Positions 3,430 through 50,199 of a stretch of 64,000 bases of DNA are shown in pieces. This DNA is from a virus. Its lineage: Duplodnaviria; Heunggongvirae; Uroviricota; Caudoviricetes. Numbering within the stretch: the first letter of the stretch is position 1; every line of letters begins with the position of its first letter. Under the pieces are notes generated by a model. That model ran no database searches. It worked only from the letters and a program-made list of their open reading frames with translations, and had not been told where the DNA came from. The translations under genes were made by a program, and so were the position numbers. The stretch lies in IMG/VR virus record IMGVR_UViG_3300031884_000008; one strand, 5' to 3'.

Positions 3430-4215
3430 ATGACCGCAAGCATTCTATCAACACCGACAAACTACAATCTTGAAGAAATCAAAGAAGCGTTCTTTGAAAA
3501 TATCAGACTGCGTTTAGGCGGAGATATAATCGACCTAGAAATTGATCCGCAGCACTATGAGGCTGCGTACAACTATACGATCAAAACTTATCGTCAACGT
3601 GCGCAAAACGCGACCCAAGAGTCATATACTCTGATGACGGTAATCAAAAACGTAGACACGTATACACTACCCAGTGACTTTATCAACGTGCGCTGTTTGT
3701 ATCGTAGAACAGTGGGTTTAGAAACAGGGCCATCGTCATCTTCGTTCGATCCATTCTCAAGCGCAATTCTCAATACGTATTTGTTGAATTACAACTATAC
3801 GGGCGGCATGGCGACGTATGACTTCTATGCAGGATACGTTGAGCTAGCAGCACGTATGTTCGGTGGATACTTGACATACACATTTGATCCGGTAACAAAG
3901 GTCCTACGTATTACTCGTGATTTTAAAGGTACGGGTGAACGCATTCTTATTTGGGCTGACATACAACGCCCAGAAGCTGTTCTTTTACAAGATCCGGGCG
4001 CCGGCGTTTGGATCGGAGACTTCATGCTTGCGGTGCTTAAAGGTATCATGGGTGAAGCTCGTGAAAAGTTTAGCACCGTTGTGGGTCCAGGTGGAGGAAC
4101 TACCCTAAACGGTACTGCTATGAAAGCAGAGTCAAAGGCTGATATGGAACGACTGCTAACTGAACTCAAGAAGTATGTGGATTATTCACAACCCCTGACA
4201 TGGATTCAAGGTTAA
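3430..4215 (+). CDS. T4 gp13-like neck protein
   Basis: N-terminal NYNLEEIKEAFFENIRLRLGGDIIDLEIDPQHYEAAYNYTIKTY follows the gp13 pattern (NP-N--EL---I--RLG-PII-VEL---Q------A---Y); ATAAATA box 20 nt upstream. Confidence 0.5.
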   Translation: MTASILSTPTNYNLEEIKEAFFENIRLRLGGDIIDLEIDPQHYEAAYNYTIKTYRQRAQNATQESYTLMTVIKNVDTYTLPSDFINVRCLYRRTVGLETGPSSSSFDPFSSAILNTYLLNYNYTGGMATYDFYAGYVELAARMFGGYLTYTFDPVTKVLRITRDFKGTGERILIWADIQRPEAVLLQDPGAGVWIGDFMLAVLKGIMGEAREKFSTVVGPGGGTTLNGTAMKAESKADMERLLTELKKYVDYSQPLTWIQG

Positions 4216-4216
4216 C

Positions 4217-4564
4217 ATGAGAATTGCTGAAATATTTTCTCCAAGTGAACCATACCGTGCTCCTCACCATGGTCGGGAACTTGAGTTGATGCTTGCTGGT
4301 ACAAAGCCGGCTGCATTGATTGACGCCTCTCCCGGATTCAAGGAAAAAGCGGATAAGTTAATACAGCAAGGTCGTATCAAACTTATTGCAAAAGACCAAA
4401 ACGGAGATTATGTTATCACTTTGCCCGGTGAAGAATGGCGAGGGGAAGAGATATTAAAACTTATATCTTCTTCAGATAGAGGCAGGGAGTATGACATCAA
4501 ATTGGGTAAATTATTGGGATACTCCGACGAAGCTATTCAGTGGTGGATAGATCAAACCGATTGA
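4217..4564 (+). CDS. hypothetical protein
   Basis: 115-aa ORF translationally coupled to the previous gene. Confidence 0.35.
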   Translation: MRIAEIFSPSEPYRAPHHGRELELMLAGTKPAALIDASPGFKEKADKLIQQGRIKLIAKDQNGDYVITLPGEEWRGEEILKLISSSDRGREYDIKLGKLLGYSDEAIQWWIDQTD

Positions 4565-4595
4565 CATTCTATAGCTACTGTGCTATTATAATTAA

Positions 4596-5231
4596 ATGAT
4601 CATAGGAATTACAGGCAAGATCGGATCCGGCAAGGATACCGCAGCAGACTATCTGTGCACCGTTCATGGATTCAAACGCATGAGCTTTGCTGGAACTCTT
4701 AAAGATGCTGTATCAGCAGTCTTCAACTGGGATAGAGAACTCCTTGAAGGCTCTACCAAAACAAGCAGAGAATGGAGAGAGACTGTTGACCAATGGTGGG
4801 CTGACAGACTAGGTATTCCAAATCTAACTCCTCGTTGGATTCTTCAGCAATGGGGGACAGATGTTTGTAGGAAAAGCTTTCACAATGACATCTGGGTAGC
4901 TTCAGTCGAGAATCGGCTCCTAGTTACAAAGGATGATATCGTCATCACTGACTGCAGGTTCCCAAATGAGATTAATGCTATCCAGTCAGCAGGCGGAATC
5001 ACTATGAGAACTAATCGCGGCGGCACCTACATATGGGAACAGTTCGCTGCTAAGTTCAACAACTCGACGGATGAAGAAGAACGCAATCATCTTAAGCTCA
5101 TCCTAGAGAAGGAATATGAAGTTCATGCTAGCGAATACAGTAGCGTTGGTCTAGAATATGATTGCCAGATAGATAATAATGGCACGATTGACAGTCTGCA
5201 TCAGCAGATTGAATCAATAATCAACGGTTAG
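4596..5231 (+). CDS. deoxynucleoside monophosphate kinase (T4 gp1-like)
   Basis: GKIGSGKDTAADYL P-loop; FAGTLKDAVSAVFNW, RWILQQWGTD and ITDCRFPNEINAIQSAGG align with T4 gp1 motifs. Confidence 0.7.
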   Translation: MIIGITGKIGSGKDTAADYLCTVHGFKRMSFAGTLKDAVSAVFNWDRELLEGSTKTSREWRETVDQWWADRLGIPNLTPRWILQQWGTDVCRKSFHNDIWVASVENRLLVTKDDIVITDCRFPNEINAIQSAGGITMRTNRGGTYIWEQFAAKFNNSTDEEERNHLKLILEKEYEVHASEYSSVGLEYDCQIDNNGTIDSLHQQIESIING

Positions 5232-5730
5232 GGTTAGACTTACAGTTATCAAAATGCCATCTAGCTAATATTAACTTTGTTCCTTCTTTACCGCAGTGCG
5301 GACAGGTTGTCTTTACAACGCATTGATGAGTACCTTCGTCCGTGCGTTGTTTTGCTGATCTTCGTTGTATGTCTCCGGATAATAGATGGTGTTTTCCACT
5401 AGCTACTAATTCCCTTTGTAGCTTTCCTCCGACTAGGGCACTTTTTCCGTCTGCTATTTGTCTTCTCACCATGCTTCGTTGAAACTCACTATCTAAAAAG
5501 AGGTGTGTTCCGTTCTCTAGTCTTTTCTTATTGTGAAGGCTTGACAATTCGGATATTTTGCTAGGGGACACACTCATTCTTTGGGCTATTCTAATACACG
5601 CACCCCAGTCTCCTTGGGAATAATGTATGTCGTAGTGATCTTGTATAGAGACGGCAATCAGATTGTTAGGATCGTTGTTTTTTCTATTCCCATCTAAGAT
5701 GGTGTATTTCATAGGTTCTCCCATCCTCAT
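5221..5730 (-). CDS. homing-endonuclease-like protein (degenerate HNH_3 motif, NUMOD-like repeats, C-terminal CPHC...WHFDNCK zinc finger)
   Basis: ILDGNRKNNDPNNLIAVSIQDH resembles I-HmuI-type HNH but lacks the first His; the C-terminal Zn module is shared with the GIY-YIG genes at 16957 and 54135. Confidence 0.45.
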   Translation of the reverse strand: MRMGEPMKYTILDGNRKNNDPNNLIAVSIQDHYDIHYSQGDWGACIRIAQRMSVSPSKISELSSLHNKKRLENGTHLFLDSEFQRSMVRRQIADGKSALVGGKLQRELVASGKHHLLSGDIQRRSAKQRTDEGTHQCVVKTTCPHCGKEGTKLILARWHFDNCKSNPNR

Positions 5731-5848
5731 CTACGGGGATGGGACCATTGTGGTCTTCGTATATTTTGCGGTAGTTGGTTTTTCTATAAATAGACATTGC
5801 TGATACTCCTTGACAGTATTAGAGTAGTTGGGGATTGCCGTCCCGCGA

Positions 5849-5856
5849 ACTACATC
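5849..5856 (-). promoter_or_regulatory. exact T4-type late promoter box TATAAATA (minus strand), followed on the transcript by a hairpin
   Basis: Reverse complement of tatttata at 5849-5856; hairpin GTAGTT...AACTAC at 5822-5845. Confidence 0.45.
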
Positions 5857-5857
5857 T

Positions 5858-6256
5858 TTATTTATACCAATCTACTGTCAAATCTCCGCGTTTCCAAGTG
5901 ACTTCTTTGCGCTTCACTACTTCAACGCAATTCAAACATATCGTCCTTAAATTATTGAACGATACATTAGTTAAGTCCCCGTCAATGTGGAACACCGTTG
6001 TTTGGCTGGGATAAACTACTTTAAATCCGCATAGGTCGCAAGTGGATTTTTTCTTGTATCCAGCCTTCTCCCAAGTATGAACCTGTGCCTTCTTTTTAGG
6101 CTTGTTCTTTCCACACCCATCACAAATACTACGGTAATGCGTCACTCCGTTCTTCTTGTAGTTGACGGCACAGTAGTTCTTATTACAGGTCTTACAGATG
6201 GGTCTTTTCAGCATACTAATACTTATCAAAAAACCTTCGAAGGTGCGTCTAACCAA
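5858..6256 (-). CDS. Cys-rich zinc-finger / HNH-like small protein
   Basis: Multiple CxxC pairs; HIDGDLTNVSFNNLRTICLNC resembles an HNH core. Confidence 0.4.
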   Translation of the reverse strand: MVRRTFEGFLISISMLKRPICKTCNKNYCAVNYKKNGVTHYRSICDGCGKNKPKKKAQVHTWEKAGYKKKSTCDLCGFKVVYPSQTTVFHIDGDLTNVSFNNLRTICLNCVEVVKRKEVTWKRGDLTVDWYK

Positions 6257-6355
6257 GGATTTTTTAATCCTACGCTAAATAAGTGTTAGAAACCTAGTGT
6301 TACTAGCATTAGGGGACAGGTGGTAAACCTCATAATTATACAAAGGAAAAATAAT

Positions 6356-9300
6356 ATGACACTAGTTTCTCCAGGTGTAGAAGTAACGATCATTGATCAA
6401 TCTCAATATCTTCCGGCCCCGCTCGGTACAATTCCTTTTGTTTTGCTCGCGACCGCAGCAAACAAAGCTGATCCTACTTCTACTTCTGTAGCAGTCGGAA
6501 CCACAGCAGCAAACGCAAACACGCTATTTCAAATCACTAGTCAACGTGATCTTGTAACTCTATATGGTAATCCATTCTTCTATACGACTTCGAATGGTAC
6601 TCCTATTCAAGGATACGAACTCAATGAATATGGTTTGCTAGCTGCATATTCTGCACTAGGTGTATCTAACTTAATTTACTGCCTAAGAGCAGATATCGAC
6701 CTCGCAAGTCTAGTAGGACAGACTGGTCGTCCTACTGGAAATCCAGCTGACGGAACTTATTGGTTAGATACTACTAACACCACTTGGGGCATTTACGAAT
6801 TTAATTCTACTACTGGGCAATTTGAAATTCAATCTCCGATTGAAATTAGCGATATTACGCTAGTATCTGCTGGATATCCAATTCAAAGCTTGGGTTCAGT
6901 GGGTGATTACGCGGTGATCGCAATTCCTAATTACACATATCCTTCTGCAAACAATGCTAAACAATTCTTCTATAAGAACTCATTTAATCAATGGGTGGCA
7001 ATCGGAACGTCTGCTTGGTTCGCTTCGGTTCCTACGGTTCAAGGTAGCAATTCACTACCAACGTTGAATTCAGGTGATTCTATCAGCATTGCGATGGGTG
7101 GCCCTGCAAACGGAGCGAATGGTCCCGTTTATACTATTACTGGACAGACTACTGTTTTTGGTCTAGCATCAGCTATTAATGCTTTACAGCGTCCGTATTT
7201 GTCAGCAAGTGTTGTAGGCGGAAATCTTCAACTTTTCTCTACACAAACTGGACAGGCTCCTAATAACAGCGTTCCGTTTTACATTAATATTTCAGGTACC
7301 GGCACAATGCTTACCTCCTTGGGCATTACCGCAGGTAATTATTTCCAACCGAATGTTGCCTATGGTACATCTGCACAGCAGCCATTATGGCAACAAGGTC
7401 AACTTTTCCCGAGCCCAACTGGATCAGTTTGGATCAAGATTGGATCTGCTGGCACTGGATTCAATCCAGTAATATCACAATGGGACAGCACACAGGCAGT
7501 TTGGTCTTCTAAAACTGTATCATTCGCTACTAGCGACGTTGCTGCGATCAATTCATTAGATTCAACTGGTGGAAAAAACATTCCAGCTGGAACGGTCTAT
7601 GCGCAATACAACTATGATGCTGATATCATCAATACTTCAGGCGTTCCTGGTTATCAAGCAGGTCCAATTTATTATTGGGAAAGACTTACATCTGGTCCAA
7701 CTGTAATTACTGGTTCTATGCAAGATCCTACATTTACTAATGGCCCATATACTAGTCATGTGTATGTTTCAATTCCAGGATCAAACGGATTGTCAGCACC
7801 TTATACGCTTAGTGTCGCAGATAACGCTACAGCGCTTGACTTTGTAACTGCTTGGACGACTGCTGCTATTCCATATACAACAGCTATGTTATTGGATACT
7901 GGAGAAATTCAATTGACTCACACTGAGGGTGGCGTGATCGTAGTAAATGACTTTGACACTAGTACATTCCAACCAAACGGTTTAATGAGTGACGCTGGAT
8001 TTGTTGTAAGTTATACTGAAGGAGTCAAAGTTGGTCCGTTTGTATCACCATTGATGACACCTACACCAACATATACTACTGGCGTAGGAACCGATTTGTC
8101 AATTAGCGTTACTAATAACTTCCAAAATTATCAAGTAAATCCTATTTCTTTTGCAAATCCAGGAACTGGTTATACTGTAGGAGACTTAGTAACATTCCCA
8201 GGTAGCCAATTAGGTGGTACTGGTACTGGTGGAATTACTCCATCAGGAAATGACTTGACTGTAAGAGTTGAAGAAACTTCAACAGGAGCAGTCACTAAAG
8301 TTTCTTACTATGCAGGCTCCGGCGCCGCAAACTACATGGTTGAATTGTCAAATTGGATACAATTTTACATGACTGCAAACGAAGGCGCACCAACTGCGGC
8401 TCCTGCTGATCTAACAAATTGGTTTTATAGTGTAGTAGATCAAGTAGATATTATGGTAAATACTACTACTGGATGGAAGGGCTATAGAAATGCATCATAC
8501 AGCAGTTCAGGTCTTCCTCTTCCATCAGGATCAAACATGACCGACCCTAACGGACCACTTATAAGTGCTTCAGAACCAATGCTGCAATCAAGCGGTCAGG
8601 CCCTTGCATATGGTGATATTTGGATCGACACTAGTGATCTAGAGAATTATCCTCTTATAAATCGTTGGGAAAGCGTAAATGGCGTAGATCAATGGGTAAG
8701 ATTAGATAATACTGATCAGACCAGTTCAACTGGTGTTCTGTTTGCAGATGCACGTTGGGCCACTACACAATACGTTAGCCCGGTTAATGATCCTATTCCA
8801 ACGATCAAGTCATTGTTGACTAGCAACTATCTTGATTTGGATGCACCAGATCCTACTTTATATCCAGTAGGTATGTTATTGTTCAATACTCGTCGTTCGG
8901 GATATAATGTAAAGCAATTCCGTTCTAACTACTTTAACAATAACAGATTCCCAGGAGCAAATATTCCCAATCAAACTGATGCCTGGGTAACAGAATCCGG
9001 GTTGCAAACAAACGGTGCTCCGTATATGGGCCGCAAGGCACAAAGAGCAATGGTTGTTAAGGCAATGCGTGAGGCAATCGACACAAATACTGCAATTCGT
9101 GACGAAGATAACGCATTCACCTTGATTGCAACTCCGAACTATCCTGAACTACAACCTAACATGGTTGTTCTCAATAACGATAGAGGAGACACTGGATTCA
9201 TCATCGGTGATACGCCGATGAGACTAGCAGATGATGCTACCTTAATTCAAGCATGGGCAACTAATGCTGCCAACGCAACGTCAACTGGTGAAGACGGTCT

Positions 9301-9982
9301 TGTAACTCGTGATACTTATTTGGGTCTGTTCTATCCATCAGGTATCACTTCTGACTTGAGCGGCAATCTTGTTGCAGTTCCTGCATCGCACATGATGATC
9401 AGAACATTCTTACGTAGTGATAGTGTTTCTTATCCATGGTTTGCTCCAGCAGGTACGCGTCGTGGTATCATAGACAACGCTACCAACATCGGATACGTTA
9501 GTGCAATGACGGGTGAATTTGTAGTAGTTAAGAATTCTAGAGTCGGAATTCGTGACGTTCTATATTCTAATCAAATCAACCCACTGGTATTCTTCACTGG
9601 AAATGGATTGCTAAACTACGGTAATAAAACTAGCTATGCATCAAATTCTGCACTTGATAGAGTTAACGTAGCAAGACTTATTGGATACATTCGTCGTCAA
9701 TTGACAGTGGCAGCAAGACCATTCGTATTCGAACCAAACGATAGTATCACTAGACAGCAAATCTCTGGTGTCATTCAAACCCTGTTTGTAGACCTAGTAG
9801 CAAAGCGCGGTGTATACGATTATTTGGTTGTATGTGATTTGTCAAACAACACACCAGCAAGAATCGACAGAAATGAACTTTGGGTAGACTGTGCGATTGA
9901 GCCGGTGAAAGCAGCAGAATTCATTTATATCCCAGTTCGCGTTCTTAATACTGGTGCATTGGGTAACAATGCTAGCTCATAA
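6356..9982 (+). CDS. tail sheath protein (T4 gp18-like) with large internal insertion
   Basis: N-terminus MTLVSPGVEVTIIDQS is near-identical in pattern to T4 gp18 MTLLSPGIELKETTVQS; followed directly by tube genes; ~1209 aa, about twice the T4 gp18 length. Confidence 0.7.
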   Translation: MTLVSPGVEVTIIDQSQYLPAPLGTIPFVLLATAANKADPTSTSVAVGTTAANANTLFQITSQRDLVTLYGNPFFYTTSNGTPIQGYELNEYGLLAAYSALGVSNLIYCLRADIDLASLVGQTGRPTGNPADGTYWLDTTNTTWGIYEFNSTTGQFEIQSPIEISDITLVSAGYPIQSLGSVGDYAVIAIPNYTYPSANNAKQFFYKNSFNQWVAIGTSAWFASVPTVQGSNSLPTLNSGDSISIAMGGPANGANGPVYTITGQTTVFGLASAINALQRPYLSASVVGGNLQLFSTQTGQAPNNSVPFYINISGTGTMLTSLGITAGNYFQPNVAYGTSAQQPLWQQGQLFPSPTGSVWIKIGSAGTGFNPVISQWDSTQAVWSSKTVSFATSDVAAINSLDSTGGKNIPAGTVYAQYNYDADIINTSGVPGYQAGPIYYWERLTSGPTVITGSMQDPTFTNGPYTSHVYVSIPGSNGLSAPYTLSVADNATALDFVTAWTTAAIPYTTAMLLDTGEIQLTHTEGGVIVVNDFDTSTFQPNGLMSDAGFVVSYTEGVKVGPFVSPLMTPTPTYTTGVGTDLSISVTNNFQNYQVNPISFANPGTGYTVGDLVTFPGSQLGGTGTGGITPSGNDLTVRVEETSTGAVTKVSYYAGSGAANYMVELSNWIQFYMTANEGAPTAAPADLTNWFYSVVDQVDIMVNTTTGWKGYRNASYSSSGLPLPSGSNMTDPNGPLISASEPMLQSSGQALAYGDIWIDTSDLENYPLINRWESVNGVDQWVRLDNTDQTSSTGVLFADARWATTQYVSPVNDPIPTIKSLLTSNYLDLDAPDPTLYPVGMLLFNTRRSGYNVKQFRSNYFNNNRFPGANIPNQTDAWVTESGLQTNGAPYMGRKAQRAMVVKAMREAIDTNTAIRDEDNAFTLIATPNYPELQPNMVVLNNDRGDTGFIIGDTPMRLADDATLIQAWATNAANATSTGEDGLVTRDTYLGLFYPSGITSDLSGNLVAVPASHMMIRTFLRSDSVSYPWFAPAGTRRGIIDNATNIGYVSAMTGEFVVVKNSRVGIRDVLYSNQINPLVFFTGNGLLNYGNKTSYASNSALDRVNVARLIGYIRRQLTVAARPFVFEPNDSITRQQISGVIQTLFVDLVAKRGVYDYLVVCDLSNNTPARIDRNELWVDCAIEPVKAAEFIYIPVRVLNTGALGNNASS

Positions 9983-9985
9983 TAT

Positions 9986-10016
9986 AGTTAAAGTGGGTGC
10001 TTTAGGGCACCCACTT
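9986..10016 (+). terminator. hairpin after sheath gene (AAGTGGGTGC-tttagg-GCACCCACTT)
   Basis: 10-bp perfect stem immediately after the stop; weak T tract. Confidence 0.45.
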
Positions 10017-16917: not shown

Positions 16918-16956
16918 GGATAGGGAGTTTATAATCTAAAACGATAAATACATATC

Positions 16957-17541
16957 ATGAATGACCCGTTATCCTTTTACGTATATGCATATCTTCGCAG
17001 CGACGGGACGCCTTATTACGTCGGTAAAGGTAAGGGCGACCGAGCATGGAACCATAGTAGGTCTGATACCGTACATCCACCGCAGGATAAGCGAAAAATT
17101 ATAATTTTGGAATCCGGGTTGACCAACTTGGGTGCTTTGACACTTGAACGAAGAATGATTCGTTGGTATGGGCGCATTGATTTGGGCACAGGTATACTTA
17201 GGAACCAAACTGATGATGGTGGTGATGGTGCATCTGGTGTCAAACAATCACAAGAAACGATAGCAAAACGAGTAGCCTCTTCCAAGGGAAAGGCTATGGG
17301 AATGACAGGAAAAAAACACACGGTTAAATCTAATGAACAACGTAGACTGTCGATGTTAGGTAAAAATACAACTCCTCATACTACGGAACGCAGATTGGCT
17401 AATTCTAGGTCAAAGCTTGGTATGAGATACAAATCACAATATATCCTTAATTGTCCACATTGCAATACTTCCGGAGGAAGTTCAAACATGAAGCGATATC
17501 ACATGGATAATTGCAAACACCTACAAAAGGTAATAGTATGA
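16957..17541 (+). CDS. GIY-YIG homing endonuclease with C-terminal CPHC...YHMDNCK zinc finger
   Basis: [32 protein letters not shown] motif; ATAAATA 7 nt upstream. Confidence 0.7.
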
Positions 17542-22394: not shown

Positions 22395-22838
22395 ATGAAC
22401 ATATTTTTACAGGATTACTATTTACGCCTCAAGGCGTGGCATGAACTTAGAGAAATCCTTAAGGACAAAGATTTGCAAACAATCTGCGTCGAGGTTGATA
22501 AGTTTTGGCAATGGGCACCTATTAGTGCCCATTATCTTCATCCAGATGACATAGAAGACTGGCCTAATCCATGGGAACTACTCAACGTGAATACTTACTG
22601 TCTATATGGTCGTGCATTGGGCATGATTTATACTCTTGTGTTATTGGGCGTACAAGACATTGACTTTGTTGAAGGAATAAGTGATAATGACAAAGATGTC
22701 ATATTAGTTCTGGTTGATAACGCAAAATATGTTATGAATGGTGGTATAGATACAGTGTTAAATACTGATCTTGCGTCGTTCGACATAAAGAAACATATCA
22801 ACATAGATCCATTGACACAGAAGATAGGCAAGCAATGA
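22395..22838 (+). CDS. hypothetical protein (tandem paralog)
   Basis: YLHPDDIEDWPNPWELLN; sits right after the fibre gene. Confidence 0.4.
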   Translation: MNIFLQDYYLRLKAWHELREILKDKDLQTICVEVDKFWQWAPISAHYLHPDDIEDWPNPWELLNVNTYCLYGRALGMIYTLVLLGVQDIDFVEGISDNDKDVILVLVDNAKYVMNGGIDTVLNTDLASFDIKKHINIDPLTQKIGKQ

Positions 22839-24490
22839 CAATTAATGTAACAAAAAGATCAGGAATAATCGAACCCCTACAACTAGAAAAGTGGCAGTCG
22901 CAAATCGCTAAAATTTGTAGCGGCATCGCTGACATTAGCCAATCGATGATTGAAATCAAAGCTTCTCCTCATTTTTTTGATGGCATTACTACTAGAGAAA
23001 TTGACGAGCTAACCCTGCGCGCAATAGTAGACCTAATTGATATTGAATCTAATCCGGACGTTGGTCATACCAATTACCAATTTGTGGCAGGTAAGCAAAG
23101 ACTGTCTATGTTGCGCAAAGACGTATATGGACAATTTCAGCCGCCGCATCTTTATGAGATAGTAAAGAAGAACGTAGAAGTAGGGCTGTATACATCTGAA
23201 CTGCTTGATTGGTATACGGAAGACGATTGGAATAAAATGAATGAAATGCTTGACCATGAAAAGGATGAGCAATATTCATATGCGGCGATTGAACAATTAG
23301 TAGAAAAGTATCTAGTTCGCAACAGAGCAACTAAAGAAATCTACGAAACTCCACAAGTTAGATACATGATCGCCGCCGCGACGGTTTTTCACAGCGAAGA
23401 ACCTAATACAGCCAGAATGCGATATATTAAGGAATATTATAATGCTGCGAGTGATGGGCTTTTTACTCTTGCTACTCCTGTGCTTGCTGGCCTTGGCACT
23501 CCTACTAAACAATTTAGTAGCTGCGTTCTTATTCGTAGCGACGATGATCTAGATAGCATCTTTGCTTCCGGAGAGATGATGGCAAAGTATGCGAGCAAGC
23601 GTGCTGGTATTGGACTAGAGATAGGAAGATTGCGTTCATTAGGTTCGCCAATTCGCGGCGGAGAAATCATGCATACCGGTATGATTCCTTTTCTAAAGAA
23701 ATGGTTCGGAGACCTCCGTTCGTGTTCTCAGGGAGGAATCAGAAACGCATCCGCCACTGTCTTTTATCCTATCTGGCATCACCAATTCGATGACCTAATT
23801 GTATTAAAGAATAATCAGGGAACCGAAGAAACCCGTGTTCGTCATATGGATTATGGCGTTGTTCTCAGTGCATTCTTCTGGCGCCGATTCAAGAATAAGG
23901 AAAACATCACCTTCTTTGATCCAAATGAAGTTCCAGATTTATATGAAGCGTTCTATAAGAACACAGCAAAGTTTGAAGAACTTTATGTAAAGTACGAGAA
24001 ACGTAAAGACCTTCGTAAGAAGACAATGAGTGCTGAAGAAGTGTTTAAGGGAGGCATACTAAAGGAACGCACAGACACTGGCCGCATCTATTTGGTCTTT
24101 ATCGACAATGTTATGAAGCAAGGCCCGTTCGATCCTGAGTACCATACTATATATCAATCTAACCTTTGCTGTGTAACCGGTGAAACACAAGTAACTTTCT
24201 TGCACGAAAACGGCAACACAGAACAAATGTCTGTTTCTAGTGCTGTGGAAAGATTTGAATTAGGTAATTTAACTACTTCAAAGATTAAAAGTTTTAAGAA
24301 TGGTGAAGTTTCCTGGGAAAATATTTCTGCGGCAATTAAAACTAAAACAGTCACCGAACTGTATGAAATTGAAGATGAAAACGGTAATGTATTGAGATGC
24401 ACAGGAGACCATCGTGTTTTTACTAAGAATAGAGGTTATGTAAGAGCCGATGAATTAGTTGAAACTGACGAGTTATGTGTTGAAATTTGA
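22835..24490 (+). CDS. nrdA: ribonucleotide reductase class Ia alpha subunit, N-terminal fragment (to active-site SNLC) fused to intein N-terminal half
   Basis: NrdA motifs (QFSSCVL, SNLC); intein block A CVTGET begins at ~24173 directly after SNLC; block B RCTGDHRVFT; in-frame stop at 24488. Confidence 0.75.
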   Translation: MTINVTKRSGIIEPLQLEKWQSQIAKICSGIADISQSMIEIKASPHFFDGITTREIDELTLRAIVDLIDIESNPDVGHTNYQFVAGKQRLSMLRKDVYGQFQPPHLYEIVKKNVEVGLYTSELLDWYTEDDWNKMNEMLDHEKDEQYSYAAIEQLVEKYLVRNRATKEIYETPQVRYMIAAATVFHSEEPNTARMRYIKEYYNAASDGLFTLATPVLAGLGTPTKQFSSCVLIRSDDDLDSIFASGEMMAKYASKRAGIGLEIGRLRSLGSPIRGGEIMHTGMIPFLKKWFGDLRSCSQGGIRNASATVFYPIWHHQFDDLIVLKNNQGTEETRVRHMDYGVVLSAFFWRRFKNKENITFFDPNEVPDLYEAFYKNTAKFEELYVKYEKRKDLRKKTMSAEEVFKGGILKERTDTGRIYLVFIDNVMKQGPFDPEYHTIYQSNLCCVTGETQVTFLHENGNTEQMSVSSAVERFELGNLTTSKIKSFKNGEVSWENISAAIKTKTVTELYEIEDENGNVLRCTGDHRVFTKNRGYVRADELVETDELCVEI

Positions 24491-24523: not shown

Positions 24524-25459
24524 ATGTATAAAGAACTTTATAAGACTATAATTGACAACGCAAGAAAAGAAAACAGAATGAGAAATCAAGGAACATATTA
24601 TGAACGACACCATATCGTTCCTGATTTCTTGTACAAGAACAGAAAGAGAACAGGACCAAACGGGCATCTAGACGGTAATCCAGATAGCGCGGAGAATTTA
24701 ATTCTATTGACTTTTTCCGAACACTTAATGGCTCATTACTACTTGTATGAGATTTATAAAGGAACTCGTTATGAATACTCTGCTGGTTCTGCCCTGCAAT
24801 TCTTTTTTGTAAAAGCGACAGGCAACCACAAACGACAAATTAATTTGTCAGATGTTGATGAAAAGTTTCTTAAAGAAATGGAACACTTAAGACTACTAGG
24901 CAATGAATGTATTAGTAAGGCAAGAAAAGGAAAGATGCCTGTTGTCGATGCTGTGACTAGAGAAAAAATAGGATCAGTCTCCGTAGATCACCCTAAAGTT
25001 TTATCAGGGGAATGGGTTCATCATAGTAAAGGCGTTCCTGGAAAGTCTGCAAGAGATATGTCTGGTTCTAAAAATACTAACTTTAAGGAATTAACTCAGG
25101 ATCGAAGAGAAAGAATGTGGAAATGTGTGTCTGAATCTTGTCAAGAGGGTTACTTGAAGTTACACTTATTGCAGGATAATATGAAAAAAGAATTTGTAGA
25201 GTTTAAGAAAATTTCATTGGCGTGGATAGGCAAAAAGTTTGGATCTTTAGAAAATCTAATAAACGAAACGAATAAGAACTTGAATCTAAACATCAAATAT
25301 AATCCATATCATAGAAGCGCAGAGCAACGACGGGTTGCAGCAGAACACTCAAAAAAACATCGATGGTACAACAACGGCGTACAAAATGTAAGAGTCACAG
25401 ACGAAGAAGAATTTTGTAAACATAATCCAAATTATGTATTAGGAAGAATAAAAATATGA
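24524..25459 (+). CDS. free-standing HNH homing endonuclease located between split-intein halves
   Basis: YYERHHIVPDF...NGHLDGNPDSAENLILLTFSEHLMAH HNH motif; stop overlaps the start of the intein-C ORF (ATGA). Confidence 0.7.
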   Translation: MYKELYKTIIDNARKENRMRNQGTYYERHHIVPDFLYKNRKRTGPNGHLDGNPDSAENLILLTFSEHLMAHYYLYEIYKGTRYEYSAGSALQFFFVKATGNHKRQINLSDVDEKFLKEMEHLRLLGNECISKARKGKMPVVDAVTREKIGSVSVDHPKVLSGEWVHHSKGVPGKSARDMSGSKNTNFKELTQDRRERMWKCVSESCQEGYLKLHLLQDNMKKEFVEFKKISLAWIGKKFGSLENLINETNKNLNLNIKYNPYHRSAEQRRVAAEHSKKHRWYNNGVQNVRVTDEEEFCKHNPNYVLGRIKI

Positions 25460-26544
25460 TTAAAATTAAAAAAATTAAAGTAGAACCAACCGATGTATAT
25501 GACTTATCTGTGCCTGAAACAGAATGTTTCTTTGCTAATAACATATTAGTTCATAACTGCGAGATCCTACTACCTACAAAGTCATTCAAGAGACTAGATG
25601 ATGAGGCCGGCCGAATTGCGCTGTGTACCTTAGGGAGTATTAATTGGGGTGCGTTCCGTAACCCAGAAGATATGCGCCGAGCATGTCGTATTCTACTAAG
25701 AAGTCTGAATAACATTTTGGATTATCAAGACTTCCTTTCTATTCAGTCTAAGTTATCGAATGACGAGATTCGTCCAATCGGTATCGGTGTAACTAATCTC
25801 GCATACTGGCACGCTAAGCGCGGATATAAGTACGGAGACTCAGATGCACTACAGGACGTAAAGAGTTGGGCAGAACACCAGACTTACTACCTCATGGAAG
25901 CAAATGTAGAATTGGCAAAAGAGCGTGGAAAGTGCATTGACTCTGACAAGACCCGCTATGGTCAAGGAATCTTTCCCTGGGAACTTAGAGCCAATGGTGT
26001 AAACGAGCTAGCAGACTTTAATCCTGAGCTTGATTGGGAATCACTACGATTTGAAATGAAAGAGTATGGTGTGCGAAACAGCACAGTTGGTGCCATTGCT
26101 CCGGTTGAATCTTCATCTGTTGCCATTAATTCAACTAATGGTATTGCACTACCAATGAGTTTGATTTCTGTTAAGGAATCAAAAGCGGGATCCTTCGTGC
26201 AAGTTGTCCCAGAATATCATAATATTAAGGTCAGAAAGAATTATCAGTTGATGTGGGATCAGGTTGATTGCGTCGAGTATCTTAAGACCTCTGCTGTTCT
26301 TGCTGCATACATGGATCAATCAATTTCAACTGATACGTTCTATAATCCAGCACATTTCCCTGATCGCAAGATACCAACTACGCTAATTGCTAAAAATTTG
26401 ATGCTAGCACATAAGTTCGGTCTCAAGACGCTTTATTATAGCCTCGTGTGTAAACAAGGTTCTAAAGAAGAAGCCGACGATGCACCTCTTATGCCTATAG
26501 ACTTTTTTGAAGATGAAGATTCCTGCGAGAGTTGTAAGTTATAG
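25456..26544 (+). CDS. nrdA: intein C-terminal half (34 aa, blocks F/G ...ILVHN) fused to NrdA C-terminal fragment
   Basis: VYDLSVPETECFFANNILVHN|CEILLPTK; C-extein resumes with CEI of the SNLC-x-EI active site at ~25558. Confidence 0.75.
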   Translation: MIKIKKIKVEPTDVYDLSVPETECFFANNILVHNCEILLPTKSFKRLDDEAGRIALCTLGSINWGAFRNPEDMRRACRILLRSLNNILDYQDFLSIQSKLSNDEIRPIGIGVTNLAYWHAKRGYKYGDSDALQDVKSWAEHQTYYLMEANVELAKERGKCIDSDKTRYGQGIFPWELRANGVNELADFNPELDWESLRFEMKEYGVRNSTVGAIAPVESSSVAINSTNGIALPMSLISVKESKAGSFVQVVPEYHNIKVRKNYQLMWDQVDCVEYLKTSAVLAAYMDQSISTDTFYNPAHFPDRKIPTTLIAKNLMLAHKFGLKTLYYSLVCKQGSKEEADDAPLMPIDFFEDEDSCESCKL

Positions 26545-26600: not shown

Positions 26601-27269
26601 ATGAACTATGAAAAAATATACAATACATTAGTAAGTAGAGGACAGAGTAGAATACTAGAAGGATATAGCGAGAAGCATCATATTGTTCCTAAATGTCTTG
26701 GTGGAACCGATGACGCATCTAACTTAGTATCATTGACTCCTGAAGAACATTATTTGTGTCATCTGTTATTAGTTAAACTGTATCCTAACAATATACGACT
26801 GGTAAAGGCCGCTATGTTTATGCTATCATCAAATAGTGAACAACAGAGAAACAACAAGTCATATGGCTGGTTAAAGAGACAATATTCCGAATATATGCGC
26901 GGTCCTAATAACCCGGCAAAACTAAACGGACCATGGAACAAGGGTATGACAGGCTATAAAAATAAAGTCAACTTTTCGGACGACACATTAAAATCAATGT
27001 CTACCCGAATGACGGGTGAAAAAAATCCATGTTCTGGTGTTAAGCCCTGGAATCATCCAAGAGCAACAGATTATTCTAAATCTGTTTGGAAACAAGCAGA
27101 AACGATTTACAATGTTTGGGTAGAAAACAATAAACCCTCGTACTGTAAGTTATATACATTAGTGAACGATAAGAGTTATATTAATGAAAGCAAAGTTATA
27201 GGACCGTATATGAATATGGTAAAATATTTTAGAAGTGGTTGGATTCCAACACAAGATACCGAGTTGTAA
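26601..27269 (+). CDS. HNH homing endonuclease
   Basis: YSEKHHIVPKCLGGTDDASNLVSLTPEEHYLCH. Confidence 0.65.
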   Translation: MNYEKIYNTLVSRGQSRILEGYSEKHHIVPKCLGGTDDASNLVSLTPEEHYLCHLLLVKLYPNNIRLVKAAMFMLSSNSEQQRNNKSYGWLKRQYSEYMRGPNNPAKLNGPWNKGMTGYKNKVNFSDDTLKSMSTRMTGEKNPCSGVKPWNHPRATDYSKSVWKQAETIYNVWVENNKPSYCKLYTLVNDKSYINESKVIGPYMNMVKYFRSGWIPTQDTEL

Positions 27270-44825: not shown

Positions 44826-45041
44826 ATGTCAAAGATGTATAAGAGTGAGGCTTCTTCTACGAAGGTAGATCACATTCAACCCATTACGGTTGAAAAACAA
44901 ATCGAGCTACTTGAATCAAAGATTCGTAGACTAGCAGAGACAGTAGCTAATGTTCAGTCTGAGTTGGGCCTAATGCAGAGGCATTATCGCCGCCAAAAAA
45001 CTGACATATCTAATTTAAATACTGCTGTTCGCAATAGATAA
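44826..45041 (+). CDS. hypothetical coiled-coil protein
   Basis: 71-aa ORF. Confidence 0.3.
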   Translation: MSKMYKSEASSTKVDHIQPITVEKQIELLESKIRRLAETVANVQSELGLMQRHYRRQKTDISNLNTAVRNR

Positions 45042-45137
45042 ATAAATTTGTAGCATGGTGCTTGCTCCTTGATAGCGTTAGAGTAGTTGGGATATTGTCG
45101 AGACATCCGTGAACTACATTTTTATTTATCTTTGTTA

Positions 45138-45166
45138 TTGACAATGGTTTGATGCTACTATATTAT
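45138..45166 (+). promoter_or_regulatory. sigma70-type promoter (TTGACA-N17-TATTAT) reading into the GC-rich island
   Basis: ttgTTGACAatggtttgatgctactaTATTATag. Confidence 0.5.
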
Positions 45167-45258
45167 AGATATGTCAATCAGACATTTATGATGGAGAAAA
45201 GCTATTTCATTTTATTTAAAATCGGGCACGAATTGGCGCGTTACTTCTAAGGATGCGA

Positions 45259-47519: not shown

Positions 47520-47593
47520 TGTCCCTTCGTCTAATGGTAAGACATCCGTTTTTGGTGCGGATTATCGAGGTTCGAGTCCTTGGGGGACAGCCA
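47520..47593 (+). tRNA. tRNA-Gln(UUG)
   Basis: Cloverleaf by eye; anticodon loop TTTTGGT; CCA encoded; TATAAATA 13 nt upstream. Confidence 0.7.
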
Positions 47594-47637
47594 AATTATA
47601 TGCCGTGTTAGCTCATACAACATACCTATTAATAGGC

Positions 47638-47644
47638 ATAAATA
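47638..47644 (+). promoter_or_regulatory. late-promoter-like ATAAATA box
   Basis: gcATAAATAactgagctaggacaaagcttATG. Confidence 0.4.
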
Positions 47645-47664
47645 ACTGAGCTAGGACAAAGCTT

Positions 47665-48162
47665 ATGCACGTATGTCACTGCGGTAAAGAGTTTGAAACG
47701 TTCCGTCAATTGAATGGACATAAAAGTGTTCATCGGGAAGGCGGAAGATACTCTATTAGTAGAGGTAGAGCCCGAACAAATATACCTTCGTGTTTGAAAT
47801 GCGAGAAACAATGTGGCGTCAAGCAAAAGTTTTGTTCTAATAAATGTCAAGCAGAATACCAGTCTGCTGAAAAAATTAAAAATTGGTTGATAACCGGTGC
47901 ATTTGATAGCATGGGTTTTCCGGCATGGGCGCGCCGAACTTTAATAGCGTTGCATGGAGCCAAATGTCAGTGGTGTAAATTAGAGCAATGGAACGATCTC
48001 CCAATCACACTAGAATGTGATCATTCAGATGGTAATCCTAATAACAATCATATAGATAATTTAAGGTTGCTTTGTCCAAACTGTCATAGTCAAACTGATT
48101 CCTTTAAAGGAAAAAACAGGGGAAATGGTCGAACGCACCGGTACAAAAATAAGCCGACGTAG
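47665..48162 (+). CDS. HNH endonuclease with N-terminal C2H2-like zinc finger (paralog of 55811)
   Basis: CHCGKEFETFRQLNGHKSVH; ITLECDHSDGNPNNNHIDNLRLLCPNCH; stop overlaps tRNA-Thr start. Confidence 0.65.
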   Translation: MHVCHCGKEFETFRQLNGHKSVHREGGRYSISRGRARTNIPSCLKCEKQCGVKQKFCSNKCQAEYQSAEKIKNWLITGAFDSMGFPAWARRTLIALHGAKCQWCKLEQWNDLPITLECDHSDGNPNNNHIDNLRLLCPNCHSQTDSFKGKNRGNGRTHRYKNKPT

Positions 48163-48227
48163 CACAGTGGTAGTGCGCAGTCTTGGTAAGACTGAGGTCA
48201 AGGGTTCAATCCCCTTCGTCGGCACCA
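48153..48227 (+). tRNA. tRNA-Thr(GGU)
   Basis: Anticodon loop TTGGTAA; CCA encoded. Confidence 0.75.
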
Positions 48228-48233
48228 TATTAC

Positions 48234-48310
48234 GGATCCTTAGCTCAGCGGACTAGAGCATCGCGCTTCGGACGCGAGGGTCGGCAGTTCAAATCTGTCA
48301 GGATTCGCCA
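48234..48310 (+). tRNA. tRNA-Arg(UCG)
   Basis: Anticodon loop CTTCGGA. Confidence 0.75.
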
Positions 48311-48330
48311 AATATAGCATATTAAAGTAT

Positions 48331-48408
48331 GCAGTCATAGCTCAACGGATGAGAGCATCAGACTACGAATCTGAGGGTTGGGGGTTCGAATCCCTCTGAT
48401 TGCGCCAT
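48331..48408 (+). tRNA. tRNA-Arg(ACG)
   Basis: Anticodon loop CTACGAA. Confidence 0.7.
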
Positions 48409-48418
48409 TTATAGTATT

Positions 48419-48530
48419 GGTCCTAGGTGGTTTTCCTTGGTGGGAAAGGGTGTGACGTTCGAATCGTCTCTATAGGACTTGGGTGCCCCAAAAGCGGTTT
48501 GATTCCGCTAGCCAATACGACTTTATCATG
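48419..48530 (+). ncRNA. tRNA-like element(s) with T-arms (GACGTTCGAATCGTC; AGCGGTTTGATTCCGCT) that do not fold into one canonical cloverleaf
   Basis: Two T-loop consensus segments, stem-triloop TTGGG-TGC-CCCAA; acceptor pairing imperfect. Confidence 0.25.
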
Positions 48531-48549
48531 CGCACTTCGTACAATAGTA

Positions 48550-48622
48550 GTACCGCTGTCTCCAAAGCAGCAGACGTGGGTTCGATTCCAATTAGACCCA
48601 CCAAATTGCGCATTGCACACCA
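48550..48622 (+). pseudogene. degenerate tRNA-Trp(CCA)-like copy (good D and anticodon arms, disrupted T-stem/acceptor)
   Basis: GTACAATAGTAGTAC D-arm; GCTGT-CTCCAAA-GCAGC anticodon arm; T-stem 3' strand does not pair. Confidence 0.3.
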
Positions 48623-48690
48623 AAGTTTATGCCCCGACTATCAACTCACTTAGGTGATTATATAATTAGGATTGAGGGCCACCATAATAC

Positions 48691-48777
48691 GGAGTGGGTA
48701 AGCAGATAGGATCTGTCTTCGCTTGGAAAGCGAAAGGTACCTTACGGGTATAGAGTTCGAATCTCTAACGCTCCGCC
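48691..48777 (+). tRNA. tRNA-Ser(GGA), class II
   Basis: Anticodon loop TTGGAAA; long variable arm. Confidence 0.7.
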
Positions 48778-48931
48778 ATAAGTTTATGCCCCTATCACGT
48801 ATGTTTGGTATCCAACACCGAAAGTAATCGAGAGAAAGATAGAGTAGGGGCGACAGTTTATCGTCAGGTCCCGCAGCGGTAGCAGTTTACTAGTGACTGC
48901 CGGAGAGAAAATTTCCTGACGGCCAAATTAT

Positions 48932-49020
48932 CAGGGTATAGCTCAGCCAGGTCGGAGCGCTCGTTTTGGAAACGAGAGGCGGAATCGTTCACGCAGGTTC
49001 GAATCCTGCTACCCTGACCA
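48932..49020 (+). tRNA. class-II (16-nt variable arm) tRNA with anticodon UGG (Pro), discriminator A73
   Basis: CTCGT-TTTGGAA-ACGAG perfect anticodon arm; var arm AGGCGGAATCGTTCAC; perfect T-arm and acceptor. Confidence 0.5.
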
Positions 49021-49029
49021 TTTAACTAC

Positions 49030-49121
49030 GGAGAGTTGACCGAGCGGCCGAAGGTGGCGGTCTCGAAAACCGACGTACTTAGAAATAAGTACCGGGGGTT
49101 CAAATCCCTCACTCTCCGCCA
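49030..49121 (+). tRNA. tRNA-Ser(CGA), class II
   Basis: Near-identical in architecture to E. coli tRNA-Ser(CGA): GGTCTCGAAAACC. Confidence 0.7.
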
Positions 49122-49129
49122 AATTTAAT

Positions 49130-49203
49130 TGAGGGTTCGTCTAATAGTAGGATATTTGACTCTGAATCAGAAGATCCAGGTGCGAGTCCTGGCCCCTCAT
49201 CCA
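49130..49203 (+). tRNA. tRNA-Gln(CUG)-like
   Basis: TTTGA-CTCTGAA-TCAGA anticodon arm; good T-arm; weak D-stem. Confidence 0.45.
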
Positions 49204-49221
49204 ACATACCAGCGAGGAAAT

Positions 49222-49605: not shown

Positions 49606-49751
49606 AGAGGATACTCTCGTTGGTACCCTGCACAATGGTTCTGACGAGGAAGGGTAGTGTGCAGCTACCCGAGAGATTATGGGGACGTAAGTGGGCTTAA
49701 CGCCGGGCTGGCAGTTCAGCAGGGAGGGTTCGATTCCCTCCGTCTCCACCA
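49606..49751 (+). ncRNA. structured RNA candidate: 5' nested-helix domain plus tRNA-like 3' module (acceptor GGGGACG/CGTCTCC, T-arm, ACCA)
   Basis: CTCTCG...CGAGAG and CTGCACA...TGTGCAG helices; ...GGGAGGGTTCGATTCCCTCCGTCTCCACCA 3' end. Confidence 0.35.
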
Positions 49752-50068: not shown

Positions 50069-50153
50069 GCGAGTATGGCGGAATTGGTAGACGCACTGGT
50101 TTTAGGTACCAGCGCCGAAAGGCGTGGGGGTTCGACTCCCTCTACTCGCACCA
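50069..50153 (+). tRNA. tRNA-Leu(UAG), class II
   Basis: Anticodon loop TTTAGGT. Confidence 0.75.
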
Positions 50154-50199
50154 ATATATAATGCCCCGATGGTGGAATTGTCCAGGGTATAAATGATGT

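Follow-up and report, generated by a model that had tools for sequence, protein, structure and literature searches.

In a 64,000-nt stretch of an uncultured tailed phage (IMG/VR record IMGVR_UViG_3300031884_000008, Caudoviricetes), which we analysed as a whole and refer to as the window, a broken homing endonuclease gene of the HNH_3 type is preceded by a leader of ~85 nt that belongs to a widespread, covarying family of leaders of homing endonuclease genes. The leader lies at 5784-5869 on the minus strand and is complete (94.3 bits, E 8.5e-21 with R1, a covariance model of the family). It runs from an ATAAATA box (5859-5865) through a 5-nt spacer to a bulged hairpin, HP1 (5824-5853), at whose first base the transcript is predicted to start (G5853). 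TCTAA (5819-5823) and a short hairpin with the Shine-Dalgarno sequence, HP2 (5804-5818), come next, and the leader ends in TCAGCA (5798-5803), ATG (5795-5797) and TATTTAT (5785-5791), that is, CAGC-ATG-TATTTAT. The sequence-only reading had proposed a repeated hairpin and late-promoter element at this place, which our analysis supports while showing that its reach had been underestimated. We consider it likely, for the account as a whole, that the window comes from an uncultured jumbo myovirus with a decaying I-TevIII/Mob-type gene that ends in an old, generic finger, a late-promoter leader that this gene shares with others, and a second, solo copy of that leader.

Within the window the leader occurs twice. 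Both copies are read on the minus strand, align over ~60-85 nt and have in common, in this order, ATAAATA, AA[AG]AT, a GTAGTTC[GA]CGG...CCCAACTAC hairpin, TCTAA, a short stem, AAGGAG and ATG. The pattern GTAGTT-N(8-38)-AACTAC is found at 5824-5853 and 45083-45117, where shuffled sequences lead one to expect 0.13 occurrences and none of 100 shuffles reaches two; within the window, the flanks ATAAATAAA[AG]ATGTAGTT and CCCAACTACTCTAA are likewise confined to these two sites. An R1 scan of the window returned no copies beyond the two (94 and 64 bits). The exact box followed by a GTAGTT...AACTAC hairpin that had been reported upstream of the HNH gene is indeed there (TATAAATA at 5859-5866, minus strand, with the hairpin at 5824-5853), and so is the similar hairpin with ATAAATA reported near 45070-45135, the match appearing when both are read on the minus strand. 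The 8-mer TATAAATA taken alone is not enriched in the window (7 found, 5.3 expected). We treat this observation and that of a shared protein motif, discussed below, as real because of the scan counts (two hairpins against 0.13 expected, three motifs).

A search of IMG/VR with the pattern ATGTAGTTC-N8-30-CCCAACTACTCTAA found the leader in more than 117 stretches, which is a lower bound, with 55 distinct cores. We aligned 77 distinct leaders with MAFFT (alignment A7, with the window copy as its first row). Inner-stem pair 28:42 is AU in 38, GC in 23, UA in 15 and CG in 1 of these, and broken in none, and pair 29:41 is AU in 41, GC in 12, UA in 8 and UG in 7. HP2, which holds half of the Shine-Dalgarno sequence in its 3' arm, has covarying pairs too (GC36/AU24 and CG40/UA11). 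R1 recovers 124 copies in 100 loci, 15 outside the search pattern, and the copies found by the covariance model only have compensated outer stems: AUAGUU/AACUAU, GUGGUU/AACCAC, GUGAGU/ACUCAC and GCCGAU/AUCGGC. Double changes occur in 14 of 16 pairs of the R1 alignment, 0 of 500 shuffles reach the observed score, and pairing falls from 88.6% to 20-51% in slid controls. The R1 alignment was fitted to the model; A7 agrees with it for the inner stem. The recovered copies hardly differ in their internal loop, UC[G/A]CGG/CC, or in their UCUAA tail, which is weak evidence because these copies were selected by that very sequence or by a model built from it. Searching Rfam 15 with positions 5500-6100 at E<=10 gave noise only, blastn of the leader against 50,697 GenBank phage records gave no match, and a literature search for the exact motif strings found nothing relevant.

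What follows the leader is nearly always an endonuclease-like open reading frame (ORF; 83 distinct copies considered). When compared by BLAST over their N-terminal 105 residues, the 62 full-length ORFs form 8 clusters of 23, 13, 9, 9, 5, 1, 1 and 1 members, and cluster representatives match HNH_3 (Pfam, 5.5e-13), phrog_655 (the 'EKHHIIP' HNH-type homing endonucleases), phrog_314 (Seg-type) and phrog_3339; the largest cluster, MTIYLYKKTHN...YLGKT, had no match in these libraries. The leader precedes at least five unrelated endonuclease families, and 22 of the 62 full-length ORFs end in the finger described below; a further 11 ORFs are short and in decay. In 38 loci the closest ORF upstream lies on the opposite strand and in 24 on the same one, and this variable orientation indicates that the leader belongs to the endonuclease gene and not to its neighbours. 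Where the upstream ORF is co-oriented, its stop codon often lies within ATAAATAA. TATTTA(T) stands 4-6 nt past CAGC in most copies even though the ATG shifts; it occurs in three reading frames and is read as x-I-Y, I-F-I or Y-L, depending on the family. That it is kept in different frames implies a constraint at the nucleotide level, which may explain the M-[ST]-I-Y start of the HNH genes here.

Leaders also occur in tandem, 1-2 kb apart and 2-3 per contig (L026/L055 at 4743 and 6035; L016 at 4551 and 5576; L012 at 3552 and 5704; L029 at 127 and 2261), with neighbouring endonuclease genes each having a copy of their own.

The box that opens the leader, ATAAATA, is enriched in the window as a 7-mer and strongly gene-proximal. 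Of its 27 plus-strand copies, 23 are intergenic and directly ahead of genes, intergenic DNA making up 16% of the window. It precedes genes at 11912, 12720, 13223 and 13729, on the downstream side of the tail tube gene, as well as both GIY-YIG genes and the genes for endonucleases at 24524, 26601 and 53583, so that a (T)ATAAATA box stands ahead of presumptive late (structural) genes. In T4 the late box lies at -13 to -6; relatives conserve its first T poorly, the box of Aeh1 being CTAAATA (PMC1524935). The CTAAATA variant is present in 11 of 86 leaders, and 67 of these 86 have a spacer of 5 nt between the box and the base where pairing begins. HP1 has a mean minimum free energy of -9.1 kcal/mol, and the Shine-Dalgarno sequence is ~60% paired in models. 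We propose that the ATAAATA box may serve as a T4-type late promoter (-12 to -6). With a spacer of 5 nt the transcript would start at the first paired G of HP1 (G5853 in the window), and the late mRNA would keep the stem-loop and have it, bulged and fully paired, at its very 5' end. This structure could be a stabiliser of the message and/or the binding site of a common regulator, HP2 could throttle translation by holding half of the Shine-Dalgarno sequence, and the net effect would be late, low-level expression of the endonuclease. All steps beyond a conserved structured element tied to endonuclease starts are ones that we infer.

A number of observations weigh against this account of the leader. 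The transcript start and the late timing are read from sequence. HP2 has just 3-5 pairs, with 72-78% of cells paired. ATAAATA and TATTTAT are complementary, yet show zero covariation in A7, and we rejected a long-range AUAAAUA/UAUUUAU helix on the ground that its pairs do not covary. The count of G-U against A-C pairs (42 vs 107) does not tell which strand folds, and U-rich tails lie behind both window copies on the plus strand (ATCTTTATTTAT and ATTTTTATTTAT). Predicted accessibility is equal in the late RNA and in RNA that reads through from upstream (Shine-Dalgarno 0.41 vs 0.41, AUG 0.47 vs 0.40).

The question of the strand leads to a different explanation, that HP1 works on the plus strand, as an intrinsic terminator or as a terminator joined to an early promoter in the manner of the PeSL elements of T4-type phages and serving early genes of the phage itself, and that endonuclease genes merely landed beside it. 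The U-rich tails just mentioned would suit such a role, and the G-U vs A-C count is compatible with plus-strand folding. In addition, both window copies lie downstream of plus-strand genes that are driven by TTGACA-17-TATTAT, the second copy being followed directly by such a promoter, and an outward-facing TTGACA lies near the box in 18 of 83 loci. HP1 has UCUAA and no U run behind it on the sense strand; the antisense tail AUCUUUAUUUAU is U-rich but interrupted, and a simple terminator scan of the window did not list HP1. Ordinary terminators in the window are unlike it, having GC stems and long runs of T. The leader's orientation to its neighbours varies (38 opposite, 24 same), R1 finds the element only beside endonuclease starts or their relics, and conservation and covariation extend into HP2, the Shine-Dalgarno sequence, CAGC-ATG and TATTTAT, which make sense only on the strand of the endonuclease. 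We therefore think a plus-strand element with incidental endonuclease neighbours unlikely, while a terminator role on the opposite strand is possible as a second function of an endonuclease leader.

A late promoter and a hairpin ahead of endonuclease genes are known from I-TevI, I-TevII, I-TevIII, segB and Aeh1 mobE (PMC2988022, PMC2330249), and there, as here, a T4-type late box lies directly beside a hairpin in the 5' untranslated region (PMC2988022). Those hairpins hide the ribosome-binding site, and a late start removes their 5' arm. The leader could conceivably work as the same translational switch, with upstream pairing silencing the read-through RNA and late transcripts starting inside the structure and being translated, an arrangement documented for T4-family endonucleases such as I-TevI, Aeh1 mobE and T4 segB (PMC2988022, PMC2330249). 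Pairing that could do this exists: UUUGACAGUA, at the end of the upstream gene, can pair with UACUGUCAAG beside the Shine-Dalgarno sequence, ATAAATA is complementary to the TATTTAT past the AUG, and late RNAs have a slightly more open region from the Shine-Dalgarno sequence to the AUG (0.50 vs 0.44, p=2e-5). Taken singly, however, neither the Shine-Dalgarno sequence nor the AUG differs, the ATAAATA/TATTTAT pairs never covary, and the outer helix is specific to the window, being weakened in the related stretch L004 and absent in L007. The architecture differs as well. Here the main hairpin is without a ribosome-binding site, HP1 ending 15 nt before the Shine-Dalgarno sequence; the AUG lies outside both hairpins, and HP2 (3-5 bp) is the only hairpin that overlaps the Shine-Dalgarno sequence. 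With the box 5 nt before the hairpin (67 of 86 leaders), late transcripts should keep HP1, and the predicted start leaves HP1 and HP2 intact, so the loss of a 5' arm that frees the ribosome-binding site is not what we find. Because Shine-Dalgarno and AUG accessibilities, as computed from partition functions, are the same in both RNAs, a switch in which the late transcript frees the ribosome-binding site is not supported, and we rejected masking of that site in the read-through RNA; a switch of the T4 style seems to us improbable here. A further difference from the known hairpins is that one sequence family is common to many unrelated genes.

The position of the box relative to start codons varies in the window. 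In the genes at 11912, 12720 and 13223 and at 46823 (minus strand), ATAAATA lies exactly 5 nt before the ATG and there is no Shine-Dalgarno sequence. A T4-type start 6 nt past the box would place the first base of these mRNAs at the A of the AUG, and several genes that lie just downstream of the tail tube gene may thus be expressed from leaderless mRNAs. In other genes the box is ~20 nt upstream and accompanied by GGAG. Strong sigma-70-type promoters, TTGACA-17-TATTAT, lie at 4561-4589, ahead of the deoxynucleoside monophosphate (dNMP) kinase gene, and at ~45143-45171, just past the solo leader. Early genes appear, from these sequences, to use host-type promoters, with ATAAATA marking the late ones.

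The PeSL elements mentioned above reportedly consist of a sigma-70-type early promoter and a terminator stem-loop. They resemble the leader (Arbiol et al. 2010, PMC2839356) in being short repeats of promoter and stem-loop that flank variable mobile ORFs and in having solo copies. The leader, in contrast, has a late-type box and a ribosome-binding site and is tied to endonuclease genes, and a sigma-70-type promoter is not a joined part of it, since the outward TTGACA is present in 18 of 83 loci at variable distance. A closer counterpart may be the hairpins that Dassa et al. (2009) describe in 15 of 16 5' untranslated regions of free-standing endonucleases within fractured genes from metagenomes, 10 of them with TATAAATA (PMC2677866); two conserved motifs pair in the stem, and one locus free of an endonuclease keeps the hairpin. 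Both sets are from uncultured phage sequences and have a hairpin with TATAAATA ahead of a free-standing endonuclease. The leader shares this architecture as it is described, the comparison being one of described architecture and not of motif sequences, and judged by that description the motif of Dassa et al. may be the same as this leader. The part of that paper considered here makes no mention of covariation, a second hairpin with the Shine-Dalgarno sequence, a fixed 5-nt spacing or a TATTTAT box. The window's own nrdA is a fractured gene with a split intein, an arrangement described by Dassa et al.

What is added here is a new form of a known kind of endonuclease regulation, with a two-hairpin architecture, covariation, a fixed spacing, a frame-independent TATTTAT, more than 100 loci and at least five families, and with no counterpart in Rfam or in cultured phages. 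We would go further only tentatively, as the following step is a possibility that we rate well below our account of the window: that the leader is a new class of structured regulatory RNA which travels with homing endonuclease genes, a portable module of late promoter, bulged hairpin, Shine-Dalgarno hairpin and first four codons that is acquired by recombination, and that it is read by one phage factor, or by a cis-antisense RNA from the mirrored TATTTAT box, with all endonucleases under one control. If this is true, and with the shared finger taken into account, these genes would each combine an interchangeable nuclease core with end-modules, 5' and 3', that they have in common. In a large clade of uncultured jumbo phages, the leader flags endonuclease genes as well as what remains of them, and it can serve as an annotation tool for endonuclease starts, pseudogenes and solo scars. 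It also offers a test case of selfish nucleases held to late, low expression by other means than the ribosome-binding-site masking of T4, and it is evidence that regulatory 5' ends, besides DNA-binding domains, are shuffled between nuclease families.

The gene behind the window's leader is an I-TevIII/Mob-type HNH_3 homing endonuclease gene with a frameshift (5221-5797, minus strand), as seen from a split Pfam match, PHROG, tblastn and intact orthologs. It had been taken to start at 5730, and this has to be revised: the true start is the ATG at 5797, behind an AAGGAG Shine-Dalgarno sequence. From there an N-terminal fragment of 37 codons runs to a TAG (5797 to 5684), and the remainder continues in the +1 frame (5730 to 5221). 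Positions 5-24 of the HNH_3 profile fall on the 37-codon ORF and positions 24-44 on the downstream ORF of 169 aa, so the HNH (beta-beta-alpha-Me) motif becomes contiguous, as ...YEIHHLDGNRKNNDPNNLIAVSIQDH..., only when one base is skipped (CAT CTT [A] GAT GGG). The site is CTT-A-GAT (5693-5698), with one extra base at about A5695 relative to intact orthologs (window CATCTTAGATGGGAAT; L004 CATATT-GACGGGAAT; L007 CACATA-GACGGTGAT). The repaired protein of 191 aa has 359 homologs at E<=1e-5, of which nearly all of the 120 listed carry PF13392, and it matches phrog_12324, 'intron-like DNA endonuclease', at 3e-40. Its best GenBank relatives by tblastn are I-TevIII of RB3 and kin (36% identity over 93% of the query), which places it in the HNH_3/I-TevIII-Mob family by sequence. 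Single-ORF orthologs of 189-196 aa are 72-82% identical, lack the extra base, and are syntenic, in that they follow the same 118-aa gene and neighbour the dNMP kinase gene.

Two other assemblies, L002 and L003, are identical in sequence to the window allele including the extra base, and we rejected an assembly error on the strength of these three identical assemblies. The same identity across three independent assemblies could be taken as a sign that the shift is a programmed +1 recoding at CUU-AGA-U and that the gene is functional, and the phage does encode a tRNA-Leu(UAG). The heptamer also resembles the +1 site of Ty1, CUU-AGG-C, presumably by coincidence. Against recoding stand the orthologs, single ORFs without the extra base at 72-82% identity, and the codon itself, as no Arg codon is commoner in the window than AGA (30%) and the phage carries its own tRNA-Arg(UCU). 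Elsewhere, 11 of 83 leader-linked ORFs are truncated too, so decay is common. We have accordingly set programmed frameshifting aside as very unlikely, given the intact orthologs, the common AGA and the cognate tRNA. Since the 1-nt insertion splits the HNH motif, at most a nuclease-dead fragment can be made, and we conclude that the gene is a genuine pseudogene with a fixed frameshift, part of a free-standing homing endonuclease cassette in decay. The inserted base also completes a perfect palindrome (CCATCT-T-AGATGG, 5690-5702), which we judge to be coincidence.

Just upstream of this gene and its leader lies a gene for a Cys-rich protein of 118 aa (5858-6214, minus strand) with weak matches to HNH and HNH_3 (0.012-0.017), whose stop codon falls inside the leader's ATAAATAA box. 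It is also present in L004-L006, and L084 has a 118-aa ORF at the same position. Beside the dNMP kinase gene, L004 has a gene for a 232-aa NUMOD3 protein, probably an endonuclease (2098-2796), where the window has a 115-aa gene (4217-4596). The dNMP kinase neighbourhood is a hot spot of endonuclease turnover. Megablast of positions 4000-10000 against GenBank phages gave no matches.

The repaired protein opens with an HNH_3 nuclease, continues through several 'GTHxF' helical repeats and closes with a single C2HC finger at its C-terminus. With I-TevIII, from the RB3 nrdB intron, and with T4 Mob it shares the N-terminal HNH_3 motif YEIHH-DGN..NN...NL...H, the 'GTHxF' repeats, the C-terminal finger and an NPNR tail. 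Unlike I-TevIII, the window gene is free-standing and not intron-encoded, has one finger and not two, encodes 191 and not 269 aa, is frameshifted, and lies between a jumbo phage's genes for dNMP kinase and tail sheath. The C-P-H-C... motif had been noticed at the C-terminus of this and two GIY-YIG genes, and a six-frame scan of the 64 kb with the strict form CP.C-x(8-13)-[WYF]H.[DN].C[KR] gives precisely these three matches: CPHCGKEGTKLILARWHFDNCK in the HNH gene (5239-5304, minus strand), one in the GIY-YIG gene at 16957 (17452-17517, plus strand) and CPHCKKIGKRSGMQVWHFDRCR in the GIY-YIG gene at 54135 (54150-54215, minus strand). The looser pattern C..C-x8-14-[WYFH]H...C adds no window ORF. 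In all three ORFs (5221-5730 minus, 16957-17541 plus and 54135-54854 minus; 169, 194 and 239 aa) the finger lies 4-7 residues from the stop codon, and the ligand spacing is identical, C-x2-C-x12-H-x3-C.

This finger is of the I-TevIII type. I-TevIII carries two copies of the motif, CDFCGHIGKGPGFYLKHNDRCKLNPNR and CPYCDKKDLSPSTYKRWHGDNCK, and the finger of the HNH gene aligns with finger I, including the ...CK.NPNR tail; in alignments of the window fingers with those of I-TevIII, to which they are homologous in sequence, C, C, H, D and C are invariant. The I-TevIII fingers are defined as CX2CX12-13HX3C (Robbins et al. 2007, PMC1865063), a ligand pattern that all three window copies have. I-TevIII binds about one zinc ion per finger in a 4-(2-pyridylazo)resorcinol (PAR) assay, loses zinc in Cys-to-Ala mutants, and loses DNA binding and cleavage when either finger is disrupted (PMC1865063). 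By homology we infer that the finger of the HNH gene would bind zinc and help to bind the DNA target. That its function is drawn from homology, and that there is one finger here and two in I-TevIII, counts against our account at this end of the gene.

The finger had been read as one cassette shuffled between nuclease families, which holds in general, as the same finger is found on GIY-YIG and HNH enzymes and as L021 and L044 fuse a GIY-YIG-like N-terminus to a whole I-TevIII-type tail of 'GTHxF' repeats and finger. It does not hold as something particular to this genome. A recent swap among its endonuclease genes would account for CPHC...H.D.C[KR] at the extreme C-terminus of all three, but pairwise identity is 10-11 of 22 residues (45-50%) and 34-36 of 66 nt (52-55%), and similarity stops at the borders of the finger. 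GenBank phage proteins, moreover, are closer to the finger of the HNH gene (60 to ~70% identity) than the other window copies are, and the module occurs in 7,158 clusters. With copies only ~50% identical there has been no recent exchange within the genome, and we rejected one, with modules at 52-55% nucleotide identity and nothing common outside the finger, as extremely improbable.

The 33-aa module alone has tblastn matches in 964 places in 650 GenBank phage records, annotated as mobE, I-TevIII remnants and Seg-like/GIY-YIG endonucleases. A profile of the three copies matches 7,158 cluster representatives at E<=1e-3 among 1.84 billion proteins, 638 of them at E<=1e-10, with 1-8 finger copies in tandem per protein. 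That the motif might be generic was the objection the sequence-only reading had raised against itself, and in essence this is what we see. Among the best 150 of the 7,158 matches, to which our architecture counts refer, 370 fingers have a spacer of 12 residues and 66 one of 13, the last finger is <=10 residues from the C-terminus in 123, the N-terminal motif is GIY-YIG-like in at least 57 and HNH-like in 7, and Pfam matches are NUMOD3 in 41, GIY-YIG in 19, SegE_GIY-YIG in 13, HNH_3 in 7 and HNH in 6. Pfam and NCBIfam have no model dedicated to the finger, giving weak, mixed zinc-ribbon matches only. As judged from this spread, the finger is an old, promiscuous, generic 'bead' of the DNA-binding domains of phage endonucleases, and it is as such a bead, not by exchange within the genome, that it would come to end the HNH gene and both Seg-like GIY-YIG genes. 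It is already known and characterised and is the ordinary half of our finding: a known I-TevIII module is extended to two more genes and shown to be common.

As for its fold, an AlphaFold2 (AF2) model of the repaired protein (70 aligned sequences, predicted local distance difference test score (pLDDT) of 90) has a strand at 162-164, CPHC, a strand at 171-173 and a helix at 174-180, followed by H181 and C185, and the module folded alone is strand-strand-helix as well (pLDDT 80). In these models the C-terminal end of the helix lies at or just ahead of the His and the last Cys, a beta-beta-alpha layout. The nearest neighbours in the PDB are the Rad18 UBZ finger (template-modelling (TM) score 0.63, root-mean-square deviation (rmsd) 2.0 A, 30 residues) and the C2H2 fingers of CTCF. 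Classical C2H2 fingers share the ligand spacing of our finger. The likeness to beta-beta-alpha fingers (C2H2; the C2HC finger of Rad18 UBZ) lies in the C-x2-C-x12-H-x3-[HC] spacing and strand-strand-helix topology, while the context (a phage nuclease here) and the Cys as last ligand differ and the sequence and Foldseek scores are not significant (E>1). Foldseek against the PDB gave no matches at E<1 for the full model or the 33-aa module, which also tells against our account. The predicted fold is thus beta-beta-alpha (C2HC), and an earlier guess of a treble clef is not what the models suggest.

The second leader copy of the window (45044-45133, minus strand; HP1 at 45083-45117; R1 63.7 bits, E 5.6e-13) has no long minus-strand ORF behind it. 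It is followed by a relic ORF of 13 codons, MLQIYLSIANSSI* (45015-45056, minus strand), which keeps the ...IYL start of leader-linked GIY-YIG genes. Relatives with flanking genes that are 61-79% identical (L125-L132) have neither leader nor endonuclease at this locus, so that the term relic rests on the leader and the IYL codons. We read 45044-45133 as a solo leader, apparently the scar that a GIY-YIG gene left when it was lost; the leader may instead have been transferred alone, without a gene.

A different kind of relic precedes the probable GIY-YIG (Seg-like) homing endonuclease gene at 16957-17541 (plus strand), which has a NUMOD3-like linker (NUMOD3 0.0015; phrog_15526 1.7e-21; phrog_314 'homing endonuclease' 6e-8) and whose GIY-YIG evidence consists of the motif YVYAY...PYYVGKG and PHROG matches weaker than those of the gene at 54135. 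At 16935-16950 (plus strand) the TCTAA of the leader is kept (16935-16939), HP1 is precisely deleted, and a new ATAAATA box stands at 16944-16950, 6 nt before the ATG. A full leader is present in the syntenic L055 ortholog, which has the same upstream terminator. The other probable GIY-YIG (Seg-like) homing endonuclease gene (54135-54854, minus strand) matches phrog_314 at 4e-39 over residues 1-235 and NUMOD3 at 5e-7, has full-length tblastn matches to annotated Seg-like genes, and is below curated cut-offs for Pfam GIY-YIG (0.29), SegE_GIY-YIG (0.004) and TIGR01453 (2.8e-13). Its ATAAATA box lies at 54859-54865, 4 nt before the ATG. Both resemble the Seg endonucleases of T4 in their free-standing GIY-YIG N-terminus and NUMOD3 linkers, and the gene at 54135-54854 lies among tRNA genes as segB does (PMC2330249). 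They differ from T4 Seg proteins in carrying the I-TevIII-type C2HC finger at the C-terminus, and their best matches are Seg-like genes of Vibrio, Aeromonas and Acinetobacter phages (31-40% identity).

In all, the 64-kb window has at least seven endonuclease genes or relics. The fractured nrdA consists of an ORF at 22835-24490 with the N-part of the reductase and the N-half of the intein (Intein_splicing, residues 487-549) and an ORF at 25456-26544 with the C-half of the intein and then the C-part of the reductase. Between them lies a free-standing 311-aa homing endonuclease of phrog_655 (24524-25459), with ATAAATA upstream and a 4-nt overlap with the downstream gene, and a 222-aa homing endonuclease of the same family (6e-57) is encoded at 26601-27269. 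An HNH_5 protein (4.7e-15) is encoded at 53583-54146, the 3' end of its gene overlapping the GIY-YIG gene convergently (54135-54146). That GIY-YIG gene lies between tRNA-Phe and tRNA-Asn, in a cluster of 28 tRNA genes (47520-62393) that includes Arg(UCU), Leu(UAG) and two Ser(CGA). At 17511-17541 the 3' end of the other GIY-YIG gene overlaps the start of a repetitive gene of 1,511-1,520 aa (ATG 17538, in GTATGA), which we take to encode a fibre protein; the same kind of overlap between an endonuclease and a downstream gene is described by Dassa et al. (2009; PMC2677866).

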